NCBI GenBank assembly: GCA_045539135.1
Contig: JAZQET010000061.1
Coordinates: forward strand, 1,032 to 65,031
Source: Eubacteriales bacterium
GTDB taxonomy: Bacteria > Bacillota > Clostridia > Oscillospirales > QAKW01
DNA: 64,000 nucleotides
Direction: 5' to 3'
The translations under genes and the position numbers were made by a program. Each line of letters begins with the position of its first letter. Position 1 is the stretch's first letter. The notes below the pieces were generated by a model. The model was not told the DNA's origin and made no database searches. It saw only the letters and a list, made by a program, of their open reading frames with translations. Below, piece by piece: positions 1,676 to 49,272 of the stretch.

Positions 1676-4030
1676 ATGCCGAGAAAAAGCAAAAAACAAC
1701 TGCTTGCCGAGCAGCAGGCAGAGAAAAAAGCCAAAAGGGAAGCCTCCCGCCGCAGTATTCAGGCGGTGGTGTTCTTTTCCTTCGCCCTGTTGATGGCTCT
1801 TTACATCTATACACCCATCAATGTGCCCTTAAAAACCTGGTTGATCGGGTTTTTAAGGGGAATGTTCGGTGCCGCCACCTTCCTGTTCCCCGCCTTCTTG
1901 GTGTGGCTGGGCGTGGACGCACTGGATAAGGATAAAAAATACAGCACCGCCGTGAAATGCTGGACAGGCCTGCTCCTTGCCGCGGTGGTCTCTGCCGCAA
2001 GCTTCATTATCTGGTACCCCGGTTCTTATTCCTTTGCGGAATTTTTCGGCAAGGGTCTTGCCGACTTCTGGAGCCAAGGGCAAGCCCTCCAAGGAGGCTT
2101 GGTGGGCGGATTTATCGCCTGCCCCTTAATTATGCTGATGTCCCGCTGGGGCTTTTCCATCCTGATCATCGCCCTGACCCTGATCGGCATCCTCTTCTTC
2201 TTTGACCTGACCCTCTATCAGATGGCCGCCCCCTTCCGTATGCTGGCGGCTTCGGTGAAGGAGCAACGGGAGAGACCTGTTTTGGTGGAGAATGTGGAAG
2301 AAGAAAAGCTTCGCCGCCATTTCGCCGATGTGAAGGCGGATGAAGAGAAAGAGGAAGAGCCTGTGTGGGTGCCTCCCGTGGATGTAACGCCTCCCGAAGA
2401 GATCACCGACATTATGCCGGTGTTTGTGTATGACGATGTGACCGCCGAAGGCAACATCGACCCTGCCGACATCGGCAGTTACGGCGAAAAGCCCAAGCGC
2501 ACCCGCAAGCCTGCGGTGCGCAAGCCTGCCGCTCCCGAAGCACCCTTGGAAGGGGAGCAACTTCATTTGTATAACTTCCCGCCCCTCTCCCTCTTGAAGG
2601 CAGGGCGGCAGTCGGCAGGCGCGGCGCAGGCAGAGCTGCGGGAAAAGGAAGAGATCCTTCTCCAGACCCTCTTGGATTTCGGCATCGAAGCCACTATGAC
2701 CGGCATCGCCGTGGGACCCAATGTTACCCGCTTTGAGCTGGCGCCCAAGGCAGGAATCCGTATCAGCCGTATTGCCGGCCTTTCGGATAACCTTGCCATG
2801 GCCCTTGCCGCCACCCAGATCCGTATCGAAGCCCCCATCCCCGGCAAAGCCGCGGTGGGGATTGAGATCCCCAATAAAACGGTGAGCACCGTCTTTATTC
2901 GGGAGGTTCTTTCTTCCGAAAACTTCCAAGACGGCAAAAGCCCCCTCACCGCCGCCTTGGGCAAGGATATTGCAGGCAACCTGATCACCTTCGATGTTGC
3001 CAAAATGCCCCACCTGCTGGTGGCAGGTACCACCGGCTCCGGTAAATCCGTTTGTATCAATACCATTTTGATGTCCATTCTTTATAAGGCCACCCCCGAG
3101 GAGGTGAAATTGATCCTCGTCGACCCCAAAGCGGTGGAGATGGATGTGTATAACGGCATCCCCCACCTGCTGATCCCCGTGGTCACCAATCCCAAAAAGG
3201 CGGCAGGCACCCTGCAATGGGCCTGCACCGAGATGGATCGCCGCTATGACCTGATGAAAAATACGCAGGTGCGGAATTTGGAGGCCTATAACGATTATTG
3301 CAAGACCCATTCCGATTATCAGCCCATGCCCCGCATTGTGGTGATCATCGACGAGCTGGCAGACCTGATGATGGTCTCCTCCAAGGAAGTGGAGGATTGC
3401 ATCTGCCGTCTGTGCGCCAAAGCGCGTGCCGCAGGGATCCACCTGATCGTTGCCACCCAGCGTCCTTCTGCGGATGTGGTCACCGGTCTGATCAAGGCAA
3501 ACATCCCCTCCCGTATCGCCTTTACCGTGGATAACGCCCTCAACTCCCGTATTATTCTGGATGAAAACGGCGCAGAAAAACTGCTGGGTCGCGGCGATAT
3601 GCTGTATAAACCCATCGGCGCCAATAAGCCCCTGCGGGTGCAGGGCTGCTTTGTGGCAGATGGGGAAGTGGAGGCGGTGGTCTCCTATGTGAAGAATAAT
3701 TCCATGGGCGCCCAATATGACCAATCCACCATCTCCACCATCGAAAACCTTTCCATGCAGGGCAATAAGAGCACCAATGCCTCCGAGGAAAGCGAAAACA
3801 CCGGCTATGATGAACTGCTGGTGCAGGCAGGCGAATGCGTCATCGAGATGGGGATGGCATCCACCTCCATGCTCCAGCGCCGCCTGAAGCTGGGCTACTC
3901 CCGCGCAGGGCGGATCGTGGATCAGCTCCATGAGCTGGGGATCATCGGACCCTTTGAGGGATCGAAACCCAGACAGGTATTGGTCACCATGGACGAGTTC
4001 AGAGAGATCTGCGTCCAACGCGACCTGTAA
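1676..4030 (+). CDS. ftsK: DNA translocase FtsK/SpoIIIE
   Basis: 784 aa with N-terminal TM helices and a Pro/Glu-rich linker. Walker A is LLVAGTTGSGKSV. IVVIIDELADLMM and HLIVATQRPS are present, and the C-terminal gamma winged-helix region reads MLQRRLKLGYSRAGRIVDQLHELGIIG. Confidence 0.95.
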   Translation: MPRKSKKQLLAEQQAEKKAKREASRRSIQAVVFFSFALLMALYIYTPINVPLKTWLIGFLRGMFGAATFLFPAFLVWLGVDALDKDKKYSTAVKCWTGLLLAAVVSAASFIIWYPGSYSFAEFFGKGLADFWSQGQALQGGLVGGFIACPLIMLMSRWGFSILIIALTLIGILFFFDLTLYQMAAPFRMLAASVKEQRERPVLVENVEEEKLRRHFADVKADEEKEEEPVWVPPVDVTPPEEITDIMPVFVYDDVTAEGNIDPADIGSYGEKPKRTRKPAVRKPAAPEAPLEGEQLHLYNFPPLSLLKAGRQSAGAAQAELREKEEILLQTLLDFGIEATMTGIAVGPNVTRFELAPKAGIRISRIAGLSDNLAMALAATQIRIEAPIPGKAAVGIEIPNKTVSTVFIREVLSSENFQDGKSPLTAALGKDIAGNLITFDVAKMPHLLVAGTTGSGKSVCINTILMSILYKATPEEVKLILVDPKAVEMDVYNGIPHLLIPVVTNPKKAAGTLQWACTEMDRRYDLMKNTQVRNLEAYNDYCKTHSDYQPMPRIVVIIDELADLMMVSSKEVEDCICRLCAKARAAGIHLIVATQRPSADVVTGLIKANIPSRIAFTVDNALNSRIILDENGAEKLLGRGDMLYKPIGANKPLRVQGCFVADGEVEAVVSYVKNNSMGAQYDQSTISTIENLSMQGNKSTNASEESENTGYDELLVQAGECVIEMGMASTSMLQRRLKLGYSRAGRIVDQLHELGIIGPFEGSKPRQVLVTMDEFREICVQRDL

Positions 4031-4203: not shown

Positions 4204-4315
4204 GAACCCGCTCAAAACGGATGAAGATCGCTGTTTCTTCGTTCGAAGGCGTATGTGATACGCCGAGAAAAGAAAAACAGCGAAGCCTTGCGGTCTTCGC
4301 CGTTTTCAGCGGTTT
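4204..4315. repeat. TIR-bounded intergenic repeat, copy 2 (inverted relative to copy 1)
   Basis: Ends are GAACCCGCTCAAAACGG and CCGTTTTCAGCGGTTT. The internal hairpin GGCGTATGTGATACGCC is shared with copy 1. The right end overlaps the rsmG stop codon. Confidence 0.7.
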
Positions 4316-5033
4316 ACCCTATGGGCTTTTCTTTGATTTGTTTCGGACTTCTCGGATATGCTTTGGGTGTGTCCCCGATTTTCCGAATCACCAAAATCGC
4401 CCGCTTATCTTCCTCTTGGGGCAGGGTATAGTGGTAAACCTTTTCCACCTTGCCGCCCAAGATGCGGATGGCCTTTTGGGCGCGCTCCAATTCTTCGTCG
4501 GCGGTGGCGCCTTTATAGGCAATGAGGGCGCCGCCCACCTTCACCAAGGGCAGGCAATATTCGCAAAGCTTGGAAAGCTCCGCCACCGCGCGGGAAACAG
4601 CGATGTCGTATTGACGGCGCAGGGCAGGATCCCGCCCTGCGTCCTCGGCGCGGGCGTGGTGCGTCTTGATGGCGGAAAGGGACATAGCATCAATGCACCC
4701 GTCCAAAAAGGTCAGCCGCTTTTGAAGGGAATCCAAAAGGGTCATCTTCAGGTCGGGGCGGGCAAGCTTTAAGGGCATAGAGGGAAATCCGCCCCCGCAG
4801 CCCACATCCACCACCGTGGCATTTTCGGGGAAGATGCCCTTGGAAACAGGGTAAATGCTATCCCAATAATGCTTTTTCATCATCTCTTCGGGGTCGGTAA
4901 TGGCGGTAAGGTTCATCACCTGATTGGTTTCCAACAGGCGGAACTCAAAGGTAAGAAGCTGCTCTTCAAAGGCGGGAGGCATAGAAACTCCTTCCTGCTC
5001 CAAAAGGGCACGCAACCGTTTCATTCGTTCCAT
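4314..5033 (-). CDS. rsmG: 16S rRNA (guanine527-N7)-methyltransferase RsmG (GidB)
   Basis: 239 aa with SAM motif VVDVGCGGGFPSMPL, in the conserved position downstream of mnmG. Confidence 0.93.
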   Translation of the reverse strand: MERMKRLRALLEQEGVSMPPAFEEQLLTFEFRLLETNQVMNLTAITDPEEMMKKHYWDSIYPVSKGIFPENATVVDVGCGGGFPSMPLKLARPDLKMTLLDSLQKRLTFLDGCIDAMSLSAIKTHHARAEDAGRDPALRRQYDIAVSRAVAELSKLCEYCLPLVKVGGALIAYKGATADEELERAQKAIRILGGKVEKVYHYTLPQEEDKRAILVIRKIGDTPKAYPRSPKQIKEKPIG

Positions 5034-6922
5034 TATTTCCGCCTCCTTTGCTCCAGTTCCAGCATCAGCACGCTGATATCCGCAGGGCTGACCCCGCTGA
5101 TGCGGCTTGCCTGCCCGATGCTCACGGGACGCACTGCCGCCAATTTTTGCCGCGCCTCCAGCCGAAGTCCTTCCATTTCGGAATAGTTCAGGTCCTCCGG
5201 CAGACGGCGATTTTCCAATTTTTGAAATTCCCGCACCTTGGCAAGCTGTTTCTCAATGTATCCCTCATATTTGATGGAGATCTCCGCCTGCTTGGCTTCC
5301 CGACGGGTCAGGGCGGGGCGGTTGGGATCCACCGGCGCCAGATCGTCGTAGGTCACCTGCGGGCGGGCGATCAGATCGGCAAGGGATGCCCCTGCGGTAA
5401 GGGGTGCGGTGCCGCAAGCCACCAAAATGGCATTGGCGGTCTCATCGTTATGGGAAAGGTGGGTGGTGCGCAGCCGCTGAATTTCCTCTTCAATATGTTG
5501 CTTTTTCTCCAAAAACCGCTGATACCGCTCCTGGGAGATCAGCCCGATCTCATAGCCCATGGGGGTGAGGCGCAGGTCTGCGTTATCCTGCCGCAAAAGC
5601 AGGCGGTATTCACTGCGGCTGGTCATCATCCGATAGGGTTCGGGGGTGCCCTTGGTCACCAGATCGTCAATCAAGGTGCCGATGTAGGAGGAAGCCCGAT
5701 CCAGAATAAAGGGCTCTTTGCCCTGAATCTTGCGGGCGGCATTGATTCCTGCCACCAAGCCTTGGGCGGCGGCCTCCTCATAGCCGGAGGAGCCGTTGAA
5801 CTGCCCTGCACCGTAAAGACCCTTCAGGTTCTTAAATTCCAAGGTGGGCAGAAGGGCTTGGGGATCCACGCAATCGTATTGAATGGCATAGGCCACCCGC
5901 ATAATTTCGGCATTTTCCAACCCGCGGATGGAATGGATAAACTGCCGTTGCACGTGCTCGGGCAGGGAGGAGGAAAGACCCTGCAGATACATCTCCTCCG
6001 TATCCTTGCCGCAGGGCTCCACAAACAGTTGGTGGGCGGTCTTTTCCTTGAACCGCATAATTTTATCTTCAATGCTGGGGCAATAGCGGGGTCCGATGCC
6101 GTGGATCTGCCCGCTGTAGATGGGGGAGAGGTGAATATTCTCCCGAATGATCTCGTGGGTGGTTTCGTTGGTGGCGGTCAGGTAGCAAACCTCGGTGTTT
6201 TCCCCGATCTCCTCGTGTTCAAAAGAGAAGGGAATGATCTCCCGATCCCCCTCCTGCAGGCTCATTTTGGAAAAATCCAAGGAGCGGCGGTTGACCCGCG
6301 CAGGAGTTCCTGTTTTGAAGGTGCGCAAGGGCACACCCAATGCCTTCAGGCAGTCGCTTAACTGATTGGCGGGAAACATTCCGTCGGGTCCGCCGGGGAG
6401 CTGGCTCTTGCCGATGATGATCTCCCCTTTAAGATAGGTGCCGGTGGCAAGGATCACCGCCTTGGCACCGTAGCGGGCGCCCAAGTGGGTCACCACTGCG
6501 GTCACCTGACCCTCTTCCGCTTCGATCTCCACGATCTCTCCTTGGATCAACAGCAGATTTTCCTGCTTTTCCAAGGCGTGCTTCATATATTGGCTGTAGC
6601 CCCGACGGTCCGATTGCACCCGCAGGGAATGCACCGCAGGCCCCTTGCCCAAGTTCAGCATTCTGCTTTGCAGGAAGGTGGCGTCTGCCGCCTTGCCCAT
6701 CTCGCCGCCCAAGGCATCGATCTCGCAGACCAAATGCCCCTTGGCGGTGCCGCCGATGGAGGGGTTGCAGGGCATATTGCCCACCCCGTCCAGACAGATG
6801 GTAAAGACCCCTACCCGACATCCCAGTCGGGCAGCGGCAAGCCCCGCCTCAATGCCGGCATGTCCCGCGCCGATCACGGCAATATCTAAATTTTCAACCT
6901 GATATTTTTCCATTCTTACCAC
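5033..6922 (-). CDS. mnmG: tRNA uridine 5-carboxymethylaminomethyl modification enzyme MnmG (GidA)
   Basis: 629 aa with FAD motif DIAVIGAGHAGIEAG and the GidA signature GPRYCPSIEDKI. An alternative ATG start lies at 6913. Confidence 0.96.
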   Translation of the reverse strand: MVRMEKYQVENLDIAVIGAGHAGIEAGLAAARLGCRVGVFTICLDGVGNMPCNPSIGGTAKGHLVCEIDALGGEMGKAADATFLQSRMLNLGKGPAVHSLRVQSDRRGYSQYMKHALEKQENLLLIQGEIVEIEAEEGQVTAVVTHLGARYGAKAVILATGTYLKGEIIIGKSQLPGGPDGMFPANQLSDCLKALGVPLRTFKTGTPARVNRRSLDFSKMSLQEGDREIIPFSFEHEEIGENTEVCYLTATNETTHEIIRENIHLSPIYSGQIHGIGPRYCPSIEDKIMRFKEKTAHQLFVEPCGKDTEEMYLQGLSSSLPEHVQRQFIHSIRGLENAEIMRVAYAIQYDCVDPQALLPTLEFKNLKGLYGAGQFNGSSGYEEAAAQGLVAGINAARKIQGKEPFILDRASSYIGTLIDDLVTKGTPEPYRMMTSRSEYRLLLRQDNADLRLTPMGYEIGLISQERYQRFLEKKQHIEEEIQRLRTTHLSHNDETANAILVACGTAPLTAGASLADLIARPQVTYDDLAPVDPNRPALTRREAKQAEISIKYEGYIEKQLAKVREFQKLENRRLPEDLNYSEMEGLRLEARQKLAAVRPVSIGQASRISGVSPADISVLMLELEQRRRK

Positions 6923-8437: not shown

Positions 8438-8819
8438 TTCACAACAAAATGTTGTGAACATTATTAAACCCACTGCTTTTCCTGTTCCATCTTTTTTCAC
8501 AACAAAATGTTGTGAAGCCTGTAAACCCCATCTACTTTTTAACTTCGGTGTTTGTTTTCACAACAAAATGTTGTGAAACCTGTAAAAGCTCTCCCTCATT
8601 CTCACGGTTGACTTCTTTTCACAACAAAATGTTGTGAACCTTATAAAACCGCCTACTTTTTTCTGCGACACTTGTTTTCACAACAAAATGTTGTGAAGCC
8701 TGTAAACCTCATCTACTTTTTAACTGCGGCATTTGTTTTCACAACAAAATGTTGTGAAGATTATAAACCTCATCTACTTTTTTACTGCGGTGTTTGTTTT
8801 CACAACATTTTGTTGTGAA
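8438..8819. repeat. Array A: 7 copies of the palindrome TTCACAACA-AAA-TGTTGTGAA in a 58-61 bp tandem unit
   Basis: 21-mers start at 8438, 8496, 8557, 8618, 8677, 8738 and 8799 (the last has a TTTT centre). Inter-palindrome segments are related to each other (GCCTGTAAACCYCATCTACTTTTTAACTKCGG..TTTGTT). No credible ORF. Confidence 0.9.
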
Positions 8820-9004
8820 GTGGGATCAAGCAAGAAGGCGCTTGCTCAGGTGTGACAAAAATGTCTGTAGAAAATTTCTTGCTGTTTTTGTGCAAGTTGG
8901 AGAAAAGAAACTTTCTTTCCGAAAACTGTTTACAAGAAGAATATTTCTTGTTATAGTGAAATTATGAAAGGTTGTTCGGTCTTTGGATCAGAAAGGAGAA
9001 AACG

Positions 9005-9697
9005 ATGAAAAAAATCATTCGCACCATGACGCTGACGCTGTGTTTGCTGTTCACCATACTTTCTTTTTCCGCCTGTCAAACAAAGGAACCGATGACAGAA
9101 GACCCCAAGGACACCGCTCCGCCCACTGTTTCTCAAGAACCCACCTTACCGGAGGATGAGGGCGCGCGGGATACAGAAGGGGACCCTCGACTGGAGCGAG
9201 CCTATGATGCCAGACTCTACAGTATTAACAGTTCGTTGCTTCAATACATTCAAGAAAACAACAAAGAGATCGACCTGAACGGTTGGTTGCAGGCAGAAAG
9301 CGAAAAAACCAAGCAATTAAAATACGGCATCTCCGCACCGGAGGAAGTGCCCTCTTTGCTTTCGGTGATCAAGGAATTTCGCATTCCGCGATCGGCCTTT
9401 GAAGCCATCAATGATGATATGATCGCCGGTTATGAAAAAAGAGAAGGCGGGGGACAAGCCCTAATCGCACAACACTGCTACACCAAAGAGGAGATCGATG
9501 CCCTTTATTCCGAGGATCCCTCCCGCATCACCGAGGCTTTTGCTGCGGAATATGCCGTTGTTGCCAACGGAAAAGCCTATGCCCCCAACTTTTATCTCTA
9601 CGCTACGGAAGAAGAATTGAACACCCACGGCATTTCCGCGGCGCAGATCAAGACCCAAAAAGACCGCTTGCTTTCGGATAAAGTTCTTTCCGAATAG
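9005..9697 (+). CDS. Hypothetical lipoprotein
   Basis: MKKIIRTMTLTLCLLFTILSFSAC is a signal peptide plus lipobox. GGAGAA RBS precedes ATG 9005 (the ORF track starts earlier, at 8972). I recognise no family. Confidence 0.7.
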   Translation: MKKIIRTMTLTLCLLFTILSFSACQTKEPMTEDPKDTAPPTVSQEPTLPEDEGARDTEGDPRLERAYDARLYSINSSLLQYIQENNKEIDLNGWLQAESEKTKQLKYGISAPEEVPSLLSVIKEFRIPRSAFEAINDDMIAGYEKREGGGQALIAQHCYTKEEIDALYSEDPSRITEAFAAEYAVVANGKAYAPNFYLYATEEELNTHGISAAQIKTQKDRLLSDKVLSE

Positions 9698-24070: not shown

Positions 24071-24117
24071 AAAAGATACGGCGGAGTTCCATTAGGAGCG
24101 CCGCCGCCGTTTTTTTT
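24071..24117. terminator. Bidirectional terminator
   Basis: AAAAAGATACGGCGG...CCGCCGTTTTTTTT, a GC stem flanked by an A-tract and a T-tract between convergent genes. Confidence 0.7.
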
Positions 24118-25435
24118 ATAGATGTTTTTTTGCAAAGGAAACAATGTATTCCGGACGATATAGAGTCAAGTTCATAAATTCGGTTTCTTCCGGCCAAAAA
24201 ATCCCATCGGCGTATCGCTCAATATAAGGATCGATAAAGTCCGAATCATATGCTTGCAAATAGTCGTAAGCATATTCAAAGATCATCACATTGCCTTTAG
24301 AAATCGCCGTTTTACAAATCTGGATCAACAGATCGTCTTTAGGCTGTTCTTTGATTTCGGGGAAAAGGATAACCTTCGGAACATCGTCCTCTACATAGCA
24401 TAAAGCATAATTATAATATAATACGACCTCTAAATCTCCAACATAAAAGCCTCTGGAATTAAACGGACAGATTAAGTCGTCATAATTGAACTTTTTAATA
24501 TTATGTATATCTTCATAACCAATAGAGTATTTGATCTTTTGAGAAACCAATTCTTTTTCCGTATAACAAACACGACGAGTGATTTTTCTTTCATCGATTT
24601 TTTTGGAAAAACCGATACCAATGTATCCTGTAGAAAAAGTGCTGATATTTCCCGCCGAAGAAGCAGGGGCAATCAATAACTTGATAATAAAGAATGCCTG
24701 TAAACAAAGCCAAAGAGCCATTATACGGGCAACCAACGGCATCAGCCATTCTCTTTTGGGAAGTTTTGGAGATGGTTTGTCACCCTTATTATACATATCC
24801 ACCAAAAAGATTCCGCTTCCCAAGAGAACATCCAGCGCTAAATCCATGATTCTGCAATTATAAGTATAGTTTTTTAGGCGAATATCCAAAAATTCGATTT
24901 CAGGCAACAATTTTTTCGCCACGGATGCATATTGCGCATAATCCAAGCCCGCAAACACGGTATAAACCGCGGCACCAAGAATCAGCCAAAGAAGAATGAC
25001 TTTTATTTTTTTACCTTTGAAAAAGTTTTTGGTCAAAATTCCGTAAAACACAAACCAAGAAAGAGCAGTCAGCGCGCCGAACATCAAAGGCGTTGCAGGG
25101 TGGGAAATGGAATTTAATCCAAAACGAAGAAGATCAAAAAACAGTTGAACGATCATTAAAAGAGCAATTTCTTTCACATAAAACCGTTCGGCAAAGGAAA
25201 GACCCGAACCCAAAAAGGTGTTTTTGGTAAAAACGGTGTCTTTTTTTATAAAACAAACGCATAAAAAGAAAAAGTAGAGCAGGTGAAACAGAAGGCTCCA
25301 AACCATCGCCAAAATGGAGGAGACACCGCTCCATTCAAAAATCCGCTTGGGATAACAGTTTCCCAGCCAATATGTGAAGCATAGGAAAAACAGCGTTAGA
25401 ATATTCAGTATAATGATCTCTGTTTTTTTGCGCAC
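24116..25435 (-). CDS. Hypothetical polytopic membrane protein with a C-terminal soluble domain of about 170 aa (low-GC island)
   Basis: 439 aa with about 8 hydrophobic helices followed by a Tyr/Asp/Glu-rich soluble domain. Codon usage and GC are visibly lower than in flanking genes. I recognise no family. Confidence 0.65.
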   Translation of the reverse strand: MRKKTEIIILNILTLFFLCFTYWLGNCYPKRIFEWSGVSSILAMVWSLLFHLLYFFFLCVCFIKKDTVFTKNTFLGSGLSFAERFYVKEIALLMIVQLFFDLLRFGLNSISHPATPLMFGALTALSWFVFYGILTKNFFKGKKIKVILLWLILGAAVYTVFAGLDYAQYASVAKKLLPEIEFLDIRLKNYTYNCRIMDLALDVLLGSGIFLVDMYNKGDKPSPKLPKREWLMPLVARIMALWLCLQAFFIIKLLIAPASSAGNISTFSTGYIGIGFSKKIDERKITRRVCYTEKELVSQKIKYSIGYEDIHNIKKFNYDDLICPFNSRGFYVGDLEVVLYYNYALCYVEDDVPKVILFPEIKEQPKDDLLIQICKTAISKGNVMIFEYAYDYLQAYDSDFIDPYIERYADGIFWPEETEFMNLTLYRPEYIVSFAKKHL

Positions 25436-25479
25436 CTGTTCACCCTCTTTCTAAAAGCCTGCCTATTTTGTATTTTACG

Positions 25480-25692
25480 TTACTTTTGAATTTTCGGTTG
25501 GTTGCTGACTCCTAATAAATAGTCAACGGAAACATTGTAGTGCTTGGAAAGCATGATCAATACTTTGGTAGGGATGTCCCGCTTGCCCAGCTCGTAAGCG
25601 CTGTATGCCTGCTGAGTGCAGTTCAGATATTCGCAGATGTGATATTGGTTAAAGCCATTGCCTTCTCGTAATTCTTTCAATCTTTTATACAT
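25480..25692 (-). CDS. XRE/Cro-C1 family helix-turn-helix transcriptional regulator (70 aa)
   Basis: MYKRLKELREGNGFNQYHICEYLNCTQQAYSAYELGKRDIPTKVLIMLSKHYNVSVDYLLG is a canonical HTH_3. ATG 25692 has GAAGGGA about 10 nt upstream (the track ORF starts at GTG 25701). Confidence 0.88.
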   Translation of the reverse strand: MYKRLKELREGNGFNQYHICEYLNCTQQAYSAYELGKRDIPTKVLIMLSKHYNVSVDYLLGVSNQPKIQK

Positions 25693-25718
25693 GAAAAACA
25701 CATCCCTTCTACCAAAAA

Positions 25719-25747
25719 ATTATATCATCCCCGCCATTTCTTGTAAA
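25719..25747 (-). promoter_or_regulatory. Predicted sigma-A promoter of the XRE gene
   Basis: The minus strand reads TTTACA (25747-25742), 17 nt, then TATAAT (25724-25719). Confidence 0.6.
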
Positions 25748-25799
25748 GCAGAAACCATAGATTTCAACAACTTTTTCTTAAAAACAGAAACGATACGCC

Positions 25800-27008
25800 T
25801 TCACAACATTTTGTTGTGAAGGCGATGAGGATCGTTGTTTTTTGGGGTAGTTTTTGGTCTGCACAACATTTTGTTGTGAAGCTAAAATTACAGGTTTCTA
25901 CAATTTTTCCTTGTATAGCGGAAGCCATTGTTCCTCACAACATTTTGTTGTGAGGAACAATTAAATTGTGCGCCGCACACATCCGGCATACTCTTCAATG
26001 ACACAACAAAATGTTGTGTAGACCAAAATCATTCTGCACTGAACACCCCCACACACTTGCTTACACAACAAAATGTTGTGAAAACAGGAGACGAGGCGGG
26101 TTGTTATTCATTGGATCACAAGACCGCACAACAAAATGTTGTGATGAATAGAAGAGTTTCTTAAAAAAAGAGTAAAAACGGTTTCACAACAAAATGTTGT
26201 GCAAATCGAAAGAGTTCAGCGAAACGGAGGGAAACGGGTTTCACAACAAAATGTTGTGAAAGTGGAGAACGAAGAACTCTACTTCCTATTTTTAAGTTTG
26301 CACAACAAAATGTTGTGTAGCCAAACCGAGTGCTTCTCATAGAGTTTTCATACAAAAAAGAAAAGAAACATTTTCACAACAAAATGTTGTGAAAATGGTA
26401 GGCACAGCAGATTATATTGCATTGGATTATATAGCTCCACAACAAAATGTTGTGAGGATTAAATCGGCGCAGTCTGTAGGGAACACAGTTATTATTCTTC
26501 ACAACAAAATGTTGTGAAGAAAGAGGAAAAGCGTTCCGGTGACACTCTATTATTGTATTTCACAACAAATTGTTGTGAAGCCTTGAGGGTCGTTGTTTTA
26601 TGATGGGCATATGATTTGTCACAACATTTTGTTGTGAAACTTATTGGATATAAGGTTATTTTACGCACTTTGTAAAGTGGTTTTTGCTTCCACAACAAAT
26701 TGTTGTGAAGATCAAAGAAAACTTATTTTAGGAAAGGGTGTATGTGTCGCACAACATTTTGTTGTGGGGCTTATTGAGTGCGAGGTTTTTAGAGTGGTTT
26801 TAGGTTACACAACATTTTGTTGTGAAGATTATGAAACTTGTTCTTTTTTTGCATGGTGTATGTGTTGCACAACATTTTGTTGTGAAGTCATGATGCTCGT
26901 GCTCTTGTAACAAGGCTGATGGTTTTTCACAACATTTTGTTGTGATGGCTATGGAGAATGCCGATTATTCTTTATGGGTTTTGGGGTTTCACAACATTTT
27001 GTTGTGCT
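25800..27008. repeat. Array B: 20 copies of the palindrome CACAACA-WWW-TGTTGTG at 57-74 bp spacing with mostly unique spacers
   Basis: 21-mers start at 25800, 25860, 25934, 26000, 26062, 26125, 26183, 26240, 26299, 26373, 26436, 26498, 26559, 26618, 26689, 26748, 26806, 26866, 26926 and 26988. The 17-bp core is essentially invariant. The A/T centre changes polarity in blocks. Only short spurious ORFs cross it. Confidence 0.92.
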
Positions 27009-28382
27009 GCGGGTTTGGGAGCGGGAGCGGGCGGTGGAGTTGAAGGCGGCGGTTTCGCGGAAGATTTCTTCCGAAAGGGCCAAAATGCCGATCAGGTTGG
27101 GCACCGCCATCAGGGCGGAGAAGAGGTCTGCCAATGCCCAAACGGCGGCGGAGTTTAAAAAGGCGCCCAGCCACAAAAAGGAAAGAAAGGCGGCGCGGAA
27201 GATAGGGCGGCTTTTTTTGGAGCGGGGAAAGAGGTAGCAAAGGCTTTGCTCGCCGTAGTAGCTCCAGCCGATGATGGACGAGAAGCCGAAAAAGAGCAGG
27301 CAGAGCATATAAAGAAAAGAGATCAGCGGGTTGGGCAAGGGTAGGGTGAAAAGAGCGTGGAGGGTGATCTCCGCCCCGTCAAGAGCGGGGGCTTTCCAAA
27401 GATCTGTTACCACCACCCCATAGCCGGTGAGGGTACACATTACCACTGTATCGAGAAAAGGTCCCAGCATAGAGATCAAGCCCTGCCGCACAGGGCTGTC
27501 GGTACGGGCGGCGGCCGCCGCAATGGGATCGCTGCCCATTCCCGCCTCATTGGAAAAGATCCCTCTGCCCAAGCCGTAGCGGATGGCTTTTTGCACCGTG
27601 TAGCCTGCGGCACCCCCGAAGACCGCCTTGGGTGCCACTGCAGAGCGGAGAATTAAGAGGGTAGAGGCGGGAATTTTCTCCACATTCTGTAATATAACCC
27701 ATAAAATCAACAAAGTGTATAGTCCTCCCATCAAGGGAACCAGAAAGGTGGAGACGGAAGCGATCCGCTTGATGCCGCCGCTTAATACCAATCCCACCAA
27801 GAGGGTGATGACCCCGCCTGCAAAAAAAGCCACCCAAAAGGGGGCGGTATGCCGAGGGTCTACCACATCTCCCACCGCCGTTACCATCCCGTTGATCTGG
27901 GAGGTGGTGCCCATACTGATGATACAGCAAAGGACACAGGCGGCGGCAAAGATCTTTGCCAAAAGGGGGCGCTTGAGTCCCTTTTCCAGATAGAGAAAGG
28001 GACCGCCCAAAAAGCCGTTTTTGTCTTTACGGCGGTAGCGCACCGCAAGAAAGGCTTCCGCATATTTGATGGCCATTCCGAAAAAGGCGGAGACGCCCAT
28101 CCAAAAAAGTGCTCCCGGTCCCCCCGCCTGCAGGGCGGTGGCAACACCGATGATGTTGCCCGTGCCCAAGGTGGCGGCAAGAGAGGTGCAAAGAGCGCCC
28201 CAGCCGCTCACCTCCCCTTGGGCGCCTTCCGGCTCCTTGAGGGCGGCAGAAAAGGCGGCTTTTAATTTGGTGAGGGAGATCCATCGGGTGCCGACGGTGC
28301 AATAGACACCGGTGCCCAGCACCAGCGCCAGCATGGCAGGACCCCAAACCAGCCCTGCAAGGGATTCTAAAAACGCAGTCAT
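26949..28382 (-). CDS. Alanine/glycine:cation symporter (AGCS family)
   Basis: 477 aa with LCTSLAATLGTGNIIGVATALQAGGPGALFWM and AIKYAEAFLAVRYR, AGCS signatures. The last ~20 codons run into array B (the tail TTKCCE is the translated palindrome). Confidence 0.88.
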   Translation of the reverse strand: MTAFLESLAGLVWGPAMLALVLGTGVYCTVGTRWISLTKLKAAFSAALKEPEGAQGEVSGWGALCTSLAATLGTGNIIGVATALQAGGPGALFWMGVSAFFGMAIKYAEAFLAVRYRRKDKNGFLGGPFLYLEKGLKRPLLAKIFAAACVLCCIISMGTTSQINGMVTAVGDVVDPRHTAPFWVAFFAGGVITLLVGLVLSGGIKRIASVSTFLVPLMGGLYTLLILWVILQNVEKIPASTLLILRSAVAPKAVFGGAAGYTVQKAIRYGLGRGIFSNEAGMGSDPIAAAAARTDSPVRQGLISMLGPFLDTVVMCTLTGYGVVVTDLWKAPALDGAEITLHALFTLPLPNPLISFLYMLCLLFFGFSSIIGWSYYGEQSLCYLFPRSKKSRPIFRAAFLSFLWLGAFLNSAAVWALADLFSALMAVPNLIGILALSEEIFRETAAFNSTARSRSQTRSTTKCCETPKPIKNNRHSP

Positions 28383-35431: not shown

Positions 35432-35712
35432 CCGCACAAATGAATTGTGCGGGAGAAGATAACGTAGCAGAGCACACAAATAGATTGTTCGGCAACAAAT
35501 TCCACAGAGGGAAGCGCACAAATAGATTGTGCGGGAGAAGATTCTGTAGAGGGTGCGCACAAATGAATTGTGCGGGAGACAGAGAAGTGTGGGAGGGCGC
35601 ACAAATAGATTGTGCGGCAGAGGGTATCACGGAAAGGATGCACAGCAGAACGCACAAATGAATTGTGCGGTAGAGGACTTCATAGAGGGGAACGCACAAA
35701 TGAATTGTGCGG
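35432..35712. repeat. Array C: 7 direct copies of the palindrome CCGCACAA-ATRRA-TTGTGCGG in a ~42 bp tandem unit
   Basis: 21-mers start at 35432, 35472, 35514, 35555, 35597, 35650 and 35692 (spacings 40, 42, 41, 42, 53, 42), all in the same orientation. Purine-rich spacers are related to each other (GAGAAGAT..GTAGAGGG). Confidence 0.9.
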
Positions 35713-35778: not shown

Positions 35779-36087
35779 ATGAAGATGGAGCGTGTTTTCA
35801 GCAAGCGGTTGCGGCAATTAAGGATTGAGAAGGGCGTTTCGGCGAAGCATATGAGCCGAGAGCTTGGGATGACGGAAAACTACATTTACAACATCGAGGC
35901 GGGTTATGCTTATCCCTCTATGACACAGTTCTTTTCCATCTGCACATATCTTGACATTGCGCCGGCGAAGTTTTTAGTATTTGAGCCGGAGACGTCCGCC
36001 AAAGAGGATGAGTTGTTGGAAGCCGTTGACGGTTTTGACAACGAAAGGATACAACAAATAATTGAATATGCCAAAGGCATCCGATAA
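35779..36087 (+). CDS. XRE family helix-turn-helix transcriptional regulator (102 aa)
   Basis: FSKRLRQLRIEKGVSAKHMSRELGMTENYIYNIEAGYAYPSMTQFFSICTYLDIAPAKFL is an HTH_3. Preceded by GGGGGAG, with a possible TTGTTT-17-TAAAAT promoter. Confidence 0.85.
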   Translation: MKMERVFSKRLRQLRIEKGVSAKHMSRELGMTENYIYNIEAGYAYPSMTQFFSICTYLDIAPAKFLVFEPETSAKEDELLEAVDGFDNERIQQIIEYAKGIR

Positions 36088-37687: not shown

Positions 37688-37716
37688 TTGACAAATCTTT
37701 GAGCCCGTGATAGAAT
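37688..37716 (+). promoter_or_regulatory. Sigma-A promoter driving the cobalamin riboswitch leader
   Basis: TTGACA (37688-37693), 17 nt, then TAGAAT (37711-37716). Confidence 0.7.
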
Positions 37717-37730
37717 ACGGAGCAGAAACA

Positions 37731-38160
37731 CGCTGTCAAACAAGGAAGAGGGGTGTGAATCCCCCGCGATCCCGTCGCCGTGATGGACGATGGAGCAAGG
37801 CGTTTGACCACTGCACCGAGAACGGGTGCGGGAAGGTGCCTTAAGGTAACAAGAGCAATCCGAACCTGCCTCAAAGCGGGATATTTCGGCGCTTTTTACC
37901 CAATTTATTCTTGCAAGGCGTCAAGCCTTGCTGCACCTAAATTGAGCAAAAATCCCTCGAAATCTCCTCGCTTTGAGGTCGAAGATTTTGAAAAGTGCGC
38001 ATTTTTGATCAATCAAGGCGCAAAACGGAGCCAATACTGCCGTATTGGCGAGTATTTTAACGAAGAGTGAACGAAAATCCGCCTTTTCAAAACAGATTCA
38101 GATTGCTCTTGTTACCTTACGCTCCGCTTGAGTCCTCAGCCGAAAGACTTCTTGACAGCG
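37731..38160 (+). promoter_or_regulatory. Cobalamin (B12) riboswitch aptamer, interrupted by a 274-bp MITE
   Basis: The P1 strands are CGCTGTCAA (37731-37739) and TTGACAGCG (38152-38160). Core elements match the btuB-type consensus as I recall it: AGGAAGAGGGGTGTGAATCCCC, GACCACTGCACC..GGGTGCGGGAAGGTGCC, and a B12-box-like AGCCGAAAGACTT (38138-38150). A hairpin plus T-tract follows (about 38160-38215). Downstream genes are a DUF4430 protein and an ECF S component. Confidence 0.75.
37844..38117 (+). mobile_element. MITE copy A (274 bp, ~25-bp imperfect terminal inverted repeats, TA target-site duplication)
   Basis: Ends are AGGTAACAAGAGCAATCCGAAC and the imperfectly inverted GATTCAGATTGCTCTTGTTACCT, flanked by TA (37842-43) and TA (38118-19). 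About 80% identical to the reverse complement of 47990-48263. Confidence 0.85.
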
Positions 38161-39182: not shown

Positions 39183-39203
39183 ATTCCTTGGGGGATTTAT
39201 TTC

Positions 39204-39285
39204 ATTTCACATTCTGCCGCAGGCAGAATATTTCACAAGGCGCAAAGCGCCTTATTTCACATTTTGCGTCAGCAAAATATTTCAC
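39204..39285. repeat. Four ATTTCAC heptamers alternating with three unrelated short hairpins (24-26 bp period)
   Basis: ATTTCAC occurs at 39204, 39230, 39254 and 39279. The hairpins are ATTCTGCC-GCA-GGCAGAAT, AAGGCGC-AAA-GCGCCTT and ATTTTGC-GTCA-GCAAAAT. Confidence 0.8.
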
Positions 39286-39324
39286 TAAAAAAGAGGGATC
39301 AGCCGAAAGGCTGATCCCTCTTTT
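39286..39324. terminator. Bidirectional terminator (ECF S component / MFS gene)
   Basis: AAAAAAGAGGGATCAGCC-GAAA-GGCTGATCCCTCTTTT. The MFS stop codon lies inside the stem. Confidence 0.8.
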
Positions 39325-47237: not shown

Positions 47238-47262
47238 GTTTCACAACATTTTGTTGTGAAAC
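47238..47262. repeat. Solo copy of the array A/B palindrome
   Basis: GTTTCACAACATTTTGTTGTGAAAC is a 25-bp palindrome (11-bp arms) in the intergenic space just before a bidirectional terminator. Confidence 0.9.
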
Positions 47263-49171: not shown

Positions 49172-49272
49172 CCTCCAGCGGGATGCGAGATCTGCACGGC
49201 GGGAACCCCTTCGTTCCAAAGACAACTCCCCGTTCTTCGGACACGTGACCCGCAGGTCTCTACTCCAGAGTA
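49172..49272 (-). promoter_or_regulatory. THF (tetrahydrofolate) riboswitch
   Basis: The minus-strand RNA reads GGAGUAGAGACCUGCGGGUCACGUGUCCGAAGAACGGGGAGUUGUCUUUGGAACGAAGGGGUUCCCGCCGUGCAGAUCUCGCAUCCCGCUGGAGG. It aligns block by block with the E. siraeum THF aptamer as I recall it (GGAGAGUAG..GCG..GGGAUGUCGUC..ACGAAG..CGCGGUG..GCAUCCGCU). The SD GGAGG lies at the 3' end. Confidence 0.75.

Follow-up and report, generated by a model that had tools for sequence, protein, structure and literature searches.

A tandem array of twenty perfect palindromes near oriC as a probable operator set of a Cro/434-like XRE protein in an Oscillospirales bacterium

What maintains twenty copies of one perfect palindrome, about 60 bp apart, beside the gene of a very small regulator? 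This question is raised by a 1.2-kb element, here called array B, in the origin region of an uncultured Eubacteriales bacterium represented by a metagenome-assembled genome (Clostridia; Oscillospirales; contig JAZQET010000061.1 of assembly GCA_045539135.1). The analysis covers one 64-kb stretch of that 65,695-bp contig, referred to throughout as the window, and all site counts given below apply to it. Array B begins some 110 bp from a gene for a 70-aa protein of the XRE family, and the evidence gathered here indicates that it is probably a tandem set of 20 cognate operators of this adjacent Cro/434-like protein.

The repeated element is a 17-bp core, CACAACAWWWTGTTGTG (CACAACA-WWW-TGTTGTG, W being A or T), of which an exact search recovered 28 copies in the window: 20 in array B, seven in a second cluster (array A) and one standing alone. 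Dinucleotide-preserving shuffles of the sequence yield an expectation of 0.03 matches. All 28 copies can be regarded as perfect because a search relaxed to 1, 2 or 3 mismatches adds only one site, at chance level, so that a halo of degenerate copies is absent. In array B, the cores of copies 1 to 10 start at positions 25802, 25862, 25936, 26002, 26064, 26127, 26185, 26242, 26301 and 26375, and those of copies 11 to 20 at 26438, 26500, 26561, 26620, 26691, 26750, 26808, 26868, 26928 and 26990. An initial annotation, made from the letters of the window, had listed the same 20 copies as 21-mers, each starting 2 bp before the core.

Each core consists of two 7-bp arms around a 3-bp centre, which places its ACAA and TTGT blocks 11 bp apart, centre to centre. 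The earlier description took the 17-bp core as the only invariant part, but flank statistics show that conservation reaches a 23-bp palindrome, YTT-core-AAR. The centre occurs as AAA, TTT, AAT or ATT only, a TpA step is never present in the 28 copies, and polarity flips blockwise along array B, as was first reported; for a dyad-symmetric DNA site, these four variants are equivalent. In several copies, complementarity reaches further into the flanks (6, 6 and 9 bp), and the 35-bp perfect palindrome previously seen at copy 3 was found again. Recomputed centre-to-centre spacings reproduce the original range of 57-74 bp, with a mean of 62.5 bp and spacers of 40-57 bp. Helical phasing of the array was rejected, given that the mean corresponds to about six turns but single spacings vary by half a turn. 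A reading of every unit as a promoter whose spacer is the operator was likewise discarded, weak hexamers being present in just 3-4 units.

Among the reasons to read the palindromes as XRE operators, beside adjacency to the gene, are three lines of evidence, namely the operator layout of homologues, the co-variation of recognition helix and half-site, and a match in register with the 434 repressor. The first line comes from 12 loci encoding XRE relatives at 40-66% identity. In every one of them, the gene's own promoter region holds 17-bp palindromes with the same 7+3+7 layout and a W-rich centre. Two palindromes are present in ten of the twelve, a third match (up to 3 mismatches) occurs in L088 and L090, overlapping in the latter, and the palindrome starts lie exactly 25 bp apart in eleven. 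The second line concerns specificity: helices TQVCYS, SQVCYS and TQVSYS go with the half-site TA[A/T]AACA (seven loci), SQTGYS with TAACCTG (four loci), and TQQAYS with TACAACA (locus L082). The XRE protein of the window belongs to this last class, and its motif is CACAACA. Downstream of the closest TQQA homologue, P0002, locus L082 also contains an 819-bp non-coding segment (5216-6035) with GC-rich palindromes (GGGCGCGC...GCGCGCCC) of a type resembling repetitive extragenic palindromic (REP) elements, which are unrelated to the operators of P0002.

The third line is structural. The XRE protein is a bare HTH_3 domain that matches the N-terminal domain of ImmR (PDB 7t8i, 1.7e-9) and the 434 repressor (1per, 0.005), and in the alignment with the latter, its recognition helix T26-Q27-Q28-A29 falls in register with T27-Q28-Q29-S30. 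The 434 operator half-site is reportedly ACAA, and in the co-crystals ascribed to Anderson et al. 1987 and Aggarwal et al. 1988, Gln28 and Gln29 are said to read its first base pairs. Among the homologues, replacement of Q by V at the equivalent of 434 Gln29 accompanies replacement of C by A/T at the base pair read by Gln29, a change that fits the established recognition scheme. As a candidate operator, the array palindrome has a dyad of about one helical turn, an HTH_3 gene nearby, and the same architecture in homologues whose specificity tracks the helix. The 434 repressor/Cro operators (OR1-3, OL1-3) are likewise dyads with ACAA...TTGT half-sites about one helical turn apart, and these and the operators of small XRE/HTH_3 proteins share with the array an A/T-rich uncontacted centre, a helix beginning with T-Q-Q, and a protein of ~70 aa encoded beside the sites.

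The association of gene and array extends to other strains. The exact XRE protein is encoded on seven metagenome contigs of the same species, with the array adjoining the gene in all seven, and the full order AGCS-array-XRE is found in all five strain contigs that reach the alanine/glycine:cation symporter (AGCS) gene. The GyrB of the source organism is 70% identical to that of Feifania hominis, with many relatives at 83-93%. The gene order is shared by three sister species, whose GyrB is 92, 89 and 86% identical, and in them the polysaccharide deacetylase gene, or a neighbouring gene, directly abuts AGCS; the 22 kb searched contain no XRE gene, no array B and no copy of even the relaxed motif. 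At L093, the only sister locus that reaches mnmE, this gene abuts jag, and array A and its neighbouring lipoprotein-like gene are absent, which implies that array A also lies in a variable island. Across the sequences compared, the XRE gene and both arrays appear to be present together and absent together. The comparison of array and flanks with relatives that the initial annotation had proposed thus returns a copy number that varies among strains and a locus that is array-free in sister species, and its first suggestion, a multi-operator array for the XRE protein, gains support from the homologue layout, the co-variation and this joint absence.

Strain comparison also informs on how the arrays have changed. 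In the six contigs that fully span array B (the seventh, L081, covers part of it only), the array has 16-20 units at up to 3 mismatches and 14-18 exact copies. The differences consist of internal loss of whole units and a rearranged AGCS-proximal part, with XRE-proximal units nearly identical; by this pattern, array B behaves as a tandem repeat under unequal recombination, unlike an array to which units are added at one end. The spacers had been called mostly unique, G-rich and purine-rich on the + strand. Their mean similarity is indeed at the shuffled level (0.48 vs 0.46), but paralogous families exist (for example, 18/19/6, 2/4 and 3/20), and G exceeds C (GC skew +0.25) but purine richness is not marked. 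The spacers of array A are still alike, with a mean identity of 69%. Units of both arrays share ancestry (best pair, 70% identity), and array A is, judged by spacer similarity (0.69 vs 0.48), the younger of the two.

Among four colinear strains, variable columns number 4 of 340 in the cores and 40 of 865 in the spacers (Fisher p = 0.003), making the cores about four times less polymorphic. Taken together, the diverged spacers, the lower core polymorphism and the 28 perfect cores point to purifying selection acting on the palindrome itself.

Several facts weigh against the operator reading. The predicted promoter of the XRE operon holds no palindrome copy; the nearest lies 53 bp upstream of its -35 hexamer, the distance to the first 21-mer that had been given originally. 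The autoregulatory layout of the family is therefore missing here. Overlap with a core promoter, expected of an operator, is not seen in the array either, where a few units have weak promoter-like hexamers, by consensus match only. The half-sites are one base pair wider apart than those of 434 (ACAA-N7-TTGT vs N6), and whereas 434-type control regions have 2-3 sites and sites of the 434/XRE family are adjacent or 25 bp apart in the regulator promoter, here there are 20 + 7 + 1, and those of array B are ~60 bp apart. No domain suited to higher-order assembly is evident in the 70-aa protein. The TQQA class comprises two loci only, with the homologues P0013, P0014 and P0029, also TQQA, lying outside the inspected set, and the changes in helix and half-site do not count as independent events because the homologue loci are phylogenetically related. 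Finally, the site total and the regulatory targets are judged from a contig of 65.7 kb alone.

If the palindromes are operators, a coherent history can be proposed. The XRE gene and its array would have arrived jointly as a low-GC island, and the array would have grown via tandem duplication of a ~60-bp unit with one operator, after which the spacers drifted and selection kept the 17-bp operators perfect. The spacing would go back to the ancestral unit, altered by small, neutral indels, and would not be a functional phasing, and the centre flips and AAT/ATT variants may be products of template switching within the hairpin, neutral for a symmetric dimer. An XRE dimer would set its two TQQA helices on the two ACAAC half-sites, and the A/T-only centre without TpA would be read by shape, as in the 434 operator, whose uncontacted central bases are read indirectly and tune affinity via DNA shape (PMC1636474). 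The predicted XRE promoter, strong by consensus, is operator-free, unlike those of all homologues examined. Since the promoter would have lost its operator, the protein is probably made constitutively, and constitutive production would keep the arrays occupied by as many as ~28 dimers in each origin region.

A loaded array might then buffer free repressor as a sink of high capacity and also, as a nucleoprotein block, separate the AGCS gene from the XRE operon; this role as protein sink or roadblock is offered tentatively. It is doubtful, going further, that a Cro-like repressor gained by horizontal transfer makes up, together with its amplified operators, a two-part device flanking oriC, the permanently loaded arrays (7 sites left, 20 right) serving as a ParB-independent landmark or barrier. 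Such a device might make forks or transcription pause, or it might set the limits of the origin domain or tether it.

The features on which this account draws are collected in Table 1.

Table 1. Positions of the arrays, their neighbouring genes and other elements, numbered from the first letter of the window
Feature	Position	Strand	Remarks
Array B	25800..27008		20 exact cores (23 bp with YTT...AAR flanks), diverged spacers
Copy 1 of array B	25796..25824	-	13-bp stem, then T-rich tail; intrinsic-terminator-like, just upstream of the XRE promoter
Copy 3 as 35-bp perfect palindrome	25927..25961		9-bp extension per side
Copy 10 of array B	26369..26397	-	13-bp stem, then TTTCTTTTCT; terminator-like
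Array A	8440..8817		7 exact copies, spacing 58-61 bp, flanked by the mnmE promoter and the gene for a 230-aa lipoprotein-like protein
Solitary exact copy	47242..47258		Between two convergent genes and their terminators
70-aa XRE/HTH_3 protein gene, Cro/434 type	25480..25692	-	Pfam HTH_3 1.1e-10; proposed palindrome binder
Predicted sigma-A promoter of XRE operon	25719..25747	-	TTTACA-17-TATAAT, TG-extended; 11/12 consensus matches, consensus match only
439-aa multi-pass membrane protein gene	24116..25435	-	45 bp downstream of the XRE gene; optional cargo among strains
Low-GC island	24071..26950		GC 0.36-0.39 vs 0.52-0.59 in flanks
AGCS gene	26949..28382	-	Transcription directed towards array B
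Lipoprotein-like gene	8972..9697	+	Beside array A; probable true start ATG at 9005; no known family
rsmG	4314..5033	-	
ftsK/spoIIIE	1676..4030	+	
Second XRE gene (XRE2)	35779..36087	+	Own 7-copy array upstream
Array C	35434..35710	one orientation	6 exact + 1 degenerate copy of GCACAAAT(GA/AG)ATTGTGC
Tetrahydrofolate (THF) riboswitch	49174..49269	-	Rfam gathering score
Gut-1 RNA	39199..39287	-	Rfam gathering score
Cobalamin riboswitch	37696..37887	+	Rfam gathering score

The low-GC island, which the initial annotation had already placed beside the array, was confirmed at 24.0-27.0 kb with 36-39% GC, and it separates the genes for the polysaccharide deacetylase and AGCS, neighbours in sister species. 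The 439-aa membrane protein and the 230-aa lipoprotein-like protein have no family in PADLOC, PHROGs, NCBIfam or Pfam, and the former shows no homology with the 443-aa neighbour of homologue P0028. The membrane-protein gene is absent in L076 and L079, two of the six strain contigs reaching its position, where the XRE gene directly abuts the deacetylase gene.

In function, the array would amount to a 434/Cro-type operator repeated many times over; in form, its closest analogues are the F-plasmid centromere sopC and engineered lacO/tetO arrays. sopC comprises 12 directly repeated units of 43 bp, and SopB binds a 16-bp inverted repeat in each (PMC3177203). The resemblance lies in the regular tandem arrangement of short palindromes for a dimeric binder encoded alongside, in an origin by unit duplication, and in the probable sufficiency of one site for binding, with many sites building a large nucleoprotein complex. 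The tandem-site arrangement of plasmid-type centromeres (sopC/parC/tubC) is, however, matched in form only: sopC works with the NTPase ParA/SopA, of which there is none here, and with ParB/SopB as binder instead of a 70-aa HTH_3 protein; its units are near identical, whereas the array spacers are diverged; and array B is chromosomal, in a species-specific island. Unlike partition cassettes, the XRE operon pairs a regulator with a membrane protein, and the window has no ParA, ParM or TubZ. Synthetic lacO/tetO arrays, used as fluorescent repressor-operator systems (FROS) or as decoys, titrate their factor, sharpen dose-response, and impede forks and RNA polymerase (PMC1636447, PMC3322331, PMC8599769). 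They too hold tens of repressor sites in tandem, but they are engineered, and the array here is natural, apparently kept by selection and encoded with its presumed binder.

The alternative that survives best treats the arrays as an origin-proximal landmark: loaded with XRE or another protein, they would form a centromere-like, tethering, domain-forming or fork-pausing device that replaces ParB-parS or operates alongside it. Their position invites this reading. The gene order is ftsK, rsmG, mnmG, mnmE, array A, the lipoprotein-like gene, jag, yidC, rnpA and a glyS-like gene, followed by dnaA, dnaN, recF, gyrB, gyrA, the deacetylase gene, the 439-aa membrane protein gene, XRE, array B, AGCS, SDR and recG. 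The cumulative GC-skew minimum falls at ~15.6-16.2 kb, in the dnaA-dnaN region, flanked by array A ~7 kb to the left and array B ~10 kb to the right, the two being 17 kb apart. Both observations that had led the initial annotation to a centromere-like or organising role therefore stand: a second array does lie on the other side of oriC, and rsmG is followed not by parA, parB or noc but by ftsK/spoIIIE on the other strand. The likeness in form to F sopC (PMC3177203) can be added, as can the membrane-protein gene in the XRE operon and the fact that few repressor-operator complexes can stop forks, three being enough to block replication forks in vitro (PMC1636447).

The role itself fared less well. 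The whole module is absent from the sister species (GyrB 86-92%), so the landmark is not a core function of the lineage. A scan of 56 reading frames in the window found no gene for Cas proteins, REP-associated tyrosine transposases (RAYT/Y1) or other transposases, ParA, ParB, ParM or TubZ, and thus no partition NTPase; the membrane-protein gene is missing in strains, as described above; and with a symmetric core, and flanks oriented alike to the left and right of oriC, the sites lack fork polarity. Origin proximity may, moreover, just reflect the stretch sampled, 65.7 kb being known. A landmark of this kind is unlikely; an accessory role linked to the origin is conceivable. Chromosomal parS/ParB was rejected, since the motif differs from the TGTTNCACGTGAAACA-type site and the window has no ParB gene.

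It is decidedly unlikely that the palindromes are bound by another protein, encoded outside the window, with XRE a bystander in the island. The operator-free XRE promoter would be in keeping with such a binder, and array A and the solitary site adjoin no regulator gene. Nevertheless, the 7+3+7 layout, the W-rich centre and the match of QQ to ACAA point specifically to the XRE family, and gene and arrays are lost or gained together.

A further possibility is a selfish or structural palindromic family of the REP type or of bacterial interspersed mosaic elements (BIME), spread by a transposase or by template switching, whose likeness to operators would be coincidental or secondary. Such families and CRISPR arrays share with array B short palindromic repeats that are regularly interspaced and intergenic. 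The solitary copy, between convergent genes by their terminators, occupies a typical REP position; the centre flips and the palindrome-perfecting AAT/ATT variants look like hairpin template switches, and several copies have the longer complementary flanks already mentioned. Against this, the window holds neither RAYT nor cas genes, the copies are perfect where REP families degenerate, the centre changes orientation and the spacers form paralogous families. The motif appears restricted to one species, and nearly all of it lies in two arrays, which contain 27 of the 28 copies and leave one solitary copy in 64 kb. This copy has no likeness to array units outside the 23-bp motif, and the motif is absent from sister species. 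Within the window, the earlier REP/BIME suggestion is disfavoured by the single solitary copy, the missing RAYT gene and the perfection of all copies, and it can be considered distinctly improbable.

Scans of sequence collections agree with this restricted distribution, in that no array of the same motif was found in the genome, metagenome, viral, plasmid or phage collections searched. In 185,579 GTDB species genomes, a set that does not include the source species, a search for two copies of CACAAC-N5-GTTGTG 35-65 bp apart returned 6 unrelated loci only (Chloroflexi, Streptomyces and Bacteroidetes). The 21-mer with flanks gave 5 single sites and no array in JGI metagenomes, the core gave 68 single chance sites and no array in IMG/VR, and blastn of the array had no match among PLSDB plasmids or INPHARED phages. 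XRE homologues of the TQQA class were not found in viral contigs, and no natural array of this sort is described in the literature searched. In metagenome-assembled genomes of Chloroflexi, a distant phylum, intergenic clusters of GCACAAC-N5-GTTGTGC resemble the arrays in half-site and clustered layout (L074 4489-4960, L073 7429-7600 and L069 2828-2905); the L074 cluster has at least 8 copies, including 3 tandem copies of a 62-bp unit, and that of L073 has 4 copies at ~51 bp.

Transcription of the array was also considered, in the form of a multi-hairpin RNA whose 20 stem-loops would serve as a stabiliser or as a sponge for protein or RNA, be it a long 3' untranslated region of the AGCS mRNA or an RNA of its own. 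The AGCS gene does read into array B with no earlier canonical terminator, copies 10 and 1 being terminator-like on that strand; each unit folds at -8.6 kcal/mol, and copy 1 at -21.4 kcal/mol (z = -6.3). Contrary to the view that the 1.2 kb contain no credible open reading frame, copy 20 and the spacer preceding copy 19 lie inside the AGCS frame, the last ~19 codons of which are encoded by the distal array end, the frame ending at 26949. The resulting lineage-specific tail of AGCS, STTKCCETPKPIKNNRHSP (26949-27008, - strand), is array-encoded, and the sister AGCS ends ~20 residues earlier in unrelated sequence. The sponge RNA of the initial annotation finds little to sustain it, however, and is very improbable. 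The array has no Rfam match at the gathering score, and noise only up to E = 10; no G-U pair or compensatory change occurs in 28 stems, which are strict Watson-Crick DNA palindromes; and along one strand the loop reads AAA in certain blocks but UUU in others, a switch without consequence for a DNA dimer site, though not for an RNA. Array A, moreover, lies in a divergent promoter region, and none of the upstream genes reads into it.

A cluster of DnaA boxes, forming a datA-like titration locus, has next to no probability. The T-rich left flank and CACA do approximate the relaxed box TTWTNCACA, units reading TTTTTCACA or GTTTTCACA at 0-2 mismatches, the dnaA-dnaN spacer has the boxes ATTTCACA and TTTTCCACA, and the arrays are near the origin. 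Yet the invariant dyad ACA-WWW-TGT is not needed by DnaA, the flank that completes the box is the variable part, and it is T-rich on one half of each palindrome only; strict TTATNCACA occurs twice in 64 kb, at chance level and neither time in an array, and the sister species lack the arrays.

CRISPR direct repeats measure 23-50 bp and keep one orientation. An array of CRISPR type, or one otherwise under active construction by a machinery that copies the repeat and adds fresh spacers of ~40 bp, is equally negligible, although the repeats are perfect, the array B spacers are near-random in similarity and fairly uniform in length, and among strains it is the AGCS-proximal end that varies, the XRE-proximal one being conserved: there is no cas gene in 64 kb, the core repeat of 17-23 bp is at or below the CRISPR range, palindromic and flipping in centre orientation, spacers are paralogous, and strain differences are internal deletions or rearrangements instead of one-end additions. 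On the absence of cas, the short flipping palindromes and the paralogous spacers, the original rejection of CRISPR is upheld. Integron attC and dif/Xer sites were set aside for motif mismatch and the lack of an integrase in the window.

Array B has a counterpart in the same window. XRE2 has its own array, array C, in the divergent recA/XRE2 intergenic region, with spacings of 40, 42, 41, 42, 53 and 42 bp, equal to 4 or 5 helical turns, and an end ~17 bp before the XRE2 -35 hexamer. The 64 kb thus contain two XRE genes that each have an array upstream, a hint that the arrangement may recur in the lineage. In the array B spacer right after copy 3, GAACAATTAAATTGTGC (25955-25971) matches the array C motif with 2 mismatches and may be a chance occurrence.

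Small XRE repressors are among the commonest bacterial regulators, and the usual picture is of two or three operators per promoter. Here, one small XRE repressor is linked to 28 perfect sites, apparently maintained by selection, around oriC, with none in its own promoter. If binding is true, the locus would provide a natural case of decoy or titration arrays, nucleoprotein roadblocks and operator-array landmarks, which have mostly been studied with synthetic arrays, and it would show a regulatory site amplified into a structural element. The homologues would offer a natural test set for the 434-like helix code, with the pairs QQ-ACAAC, QV-AAAAC and QT-AACCT. Should the oriC device also prove true, the arrays would be a natural counterpart of lacO/tetO arrays and would illustrate a route from transcription factor to chromosome-architecture protein.

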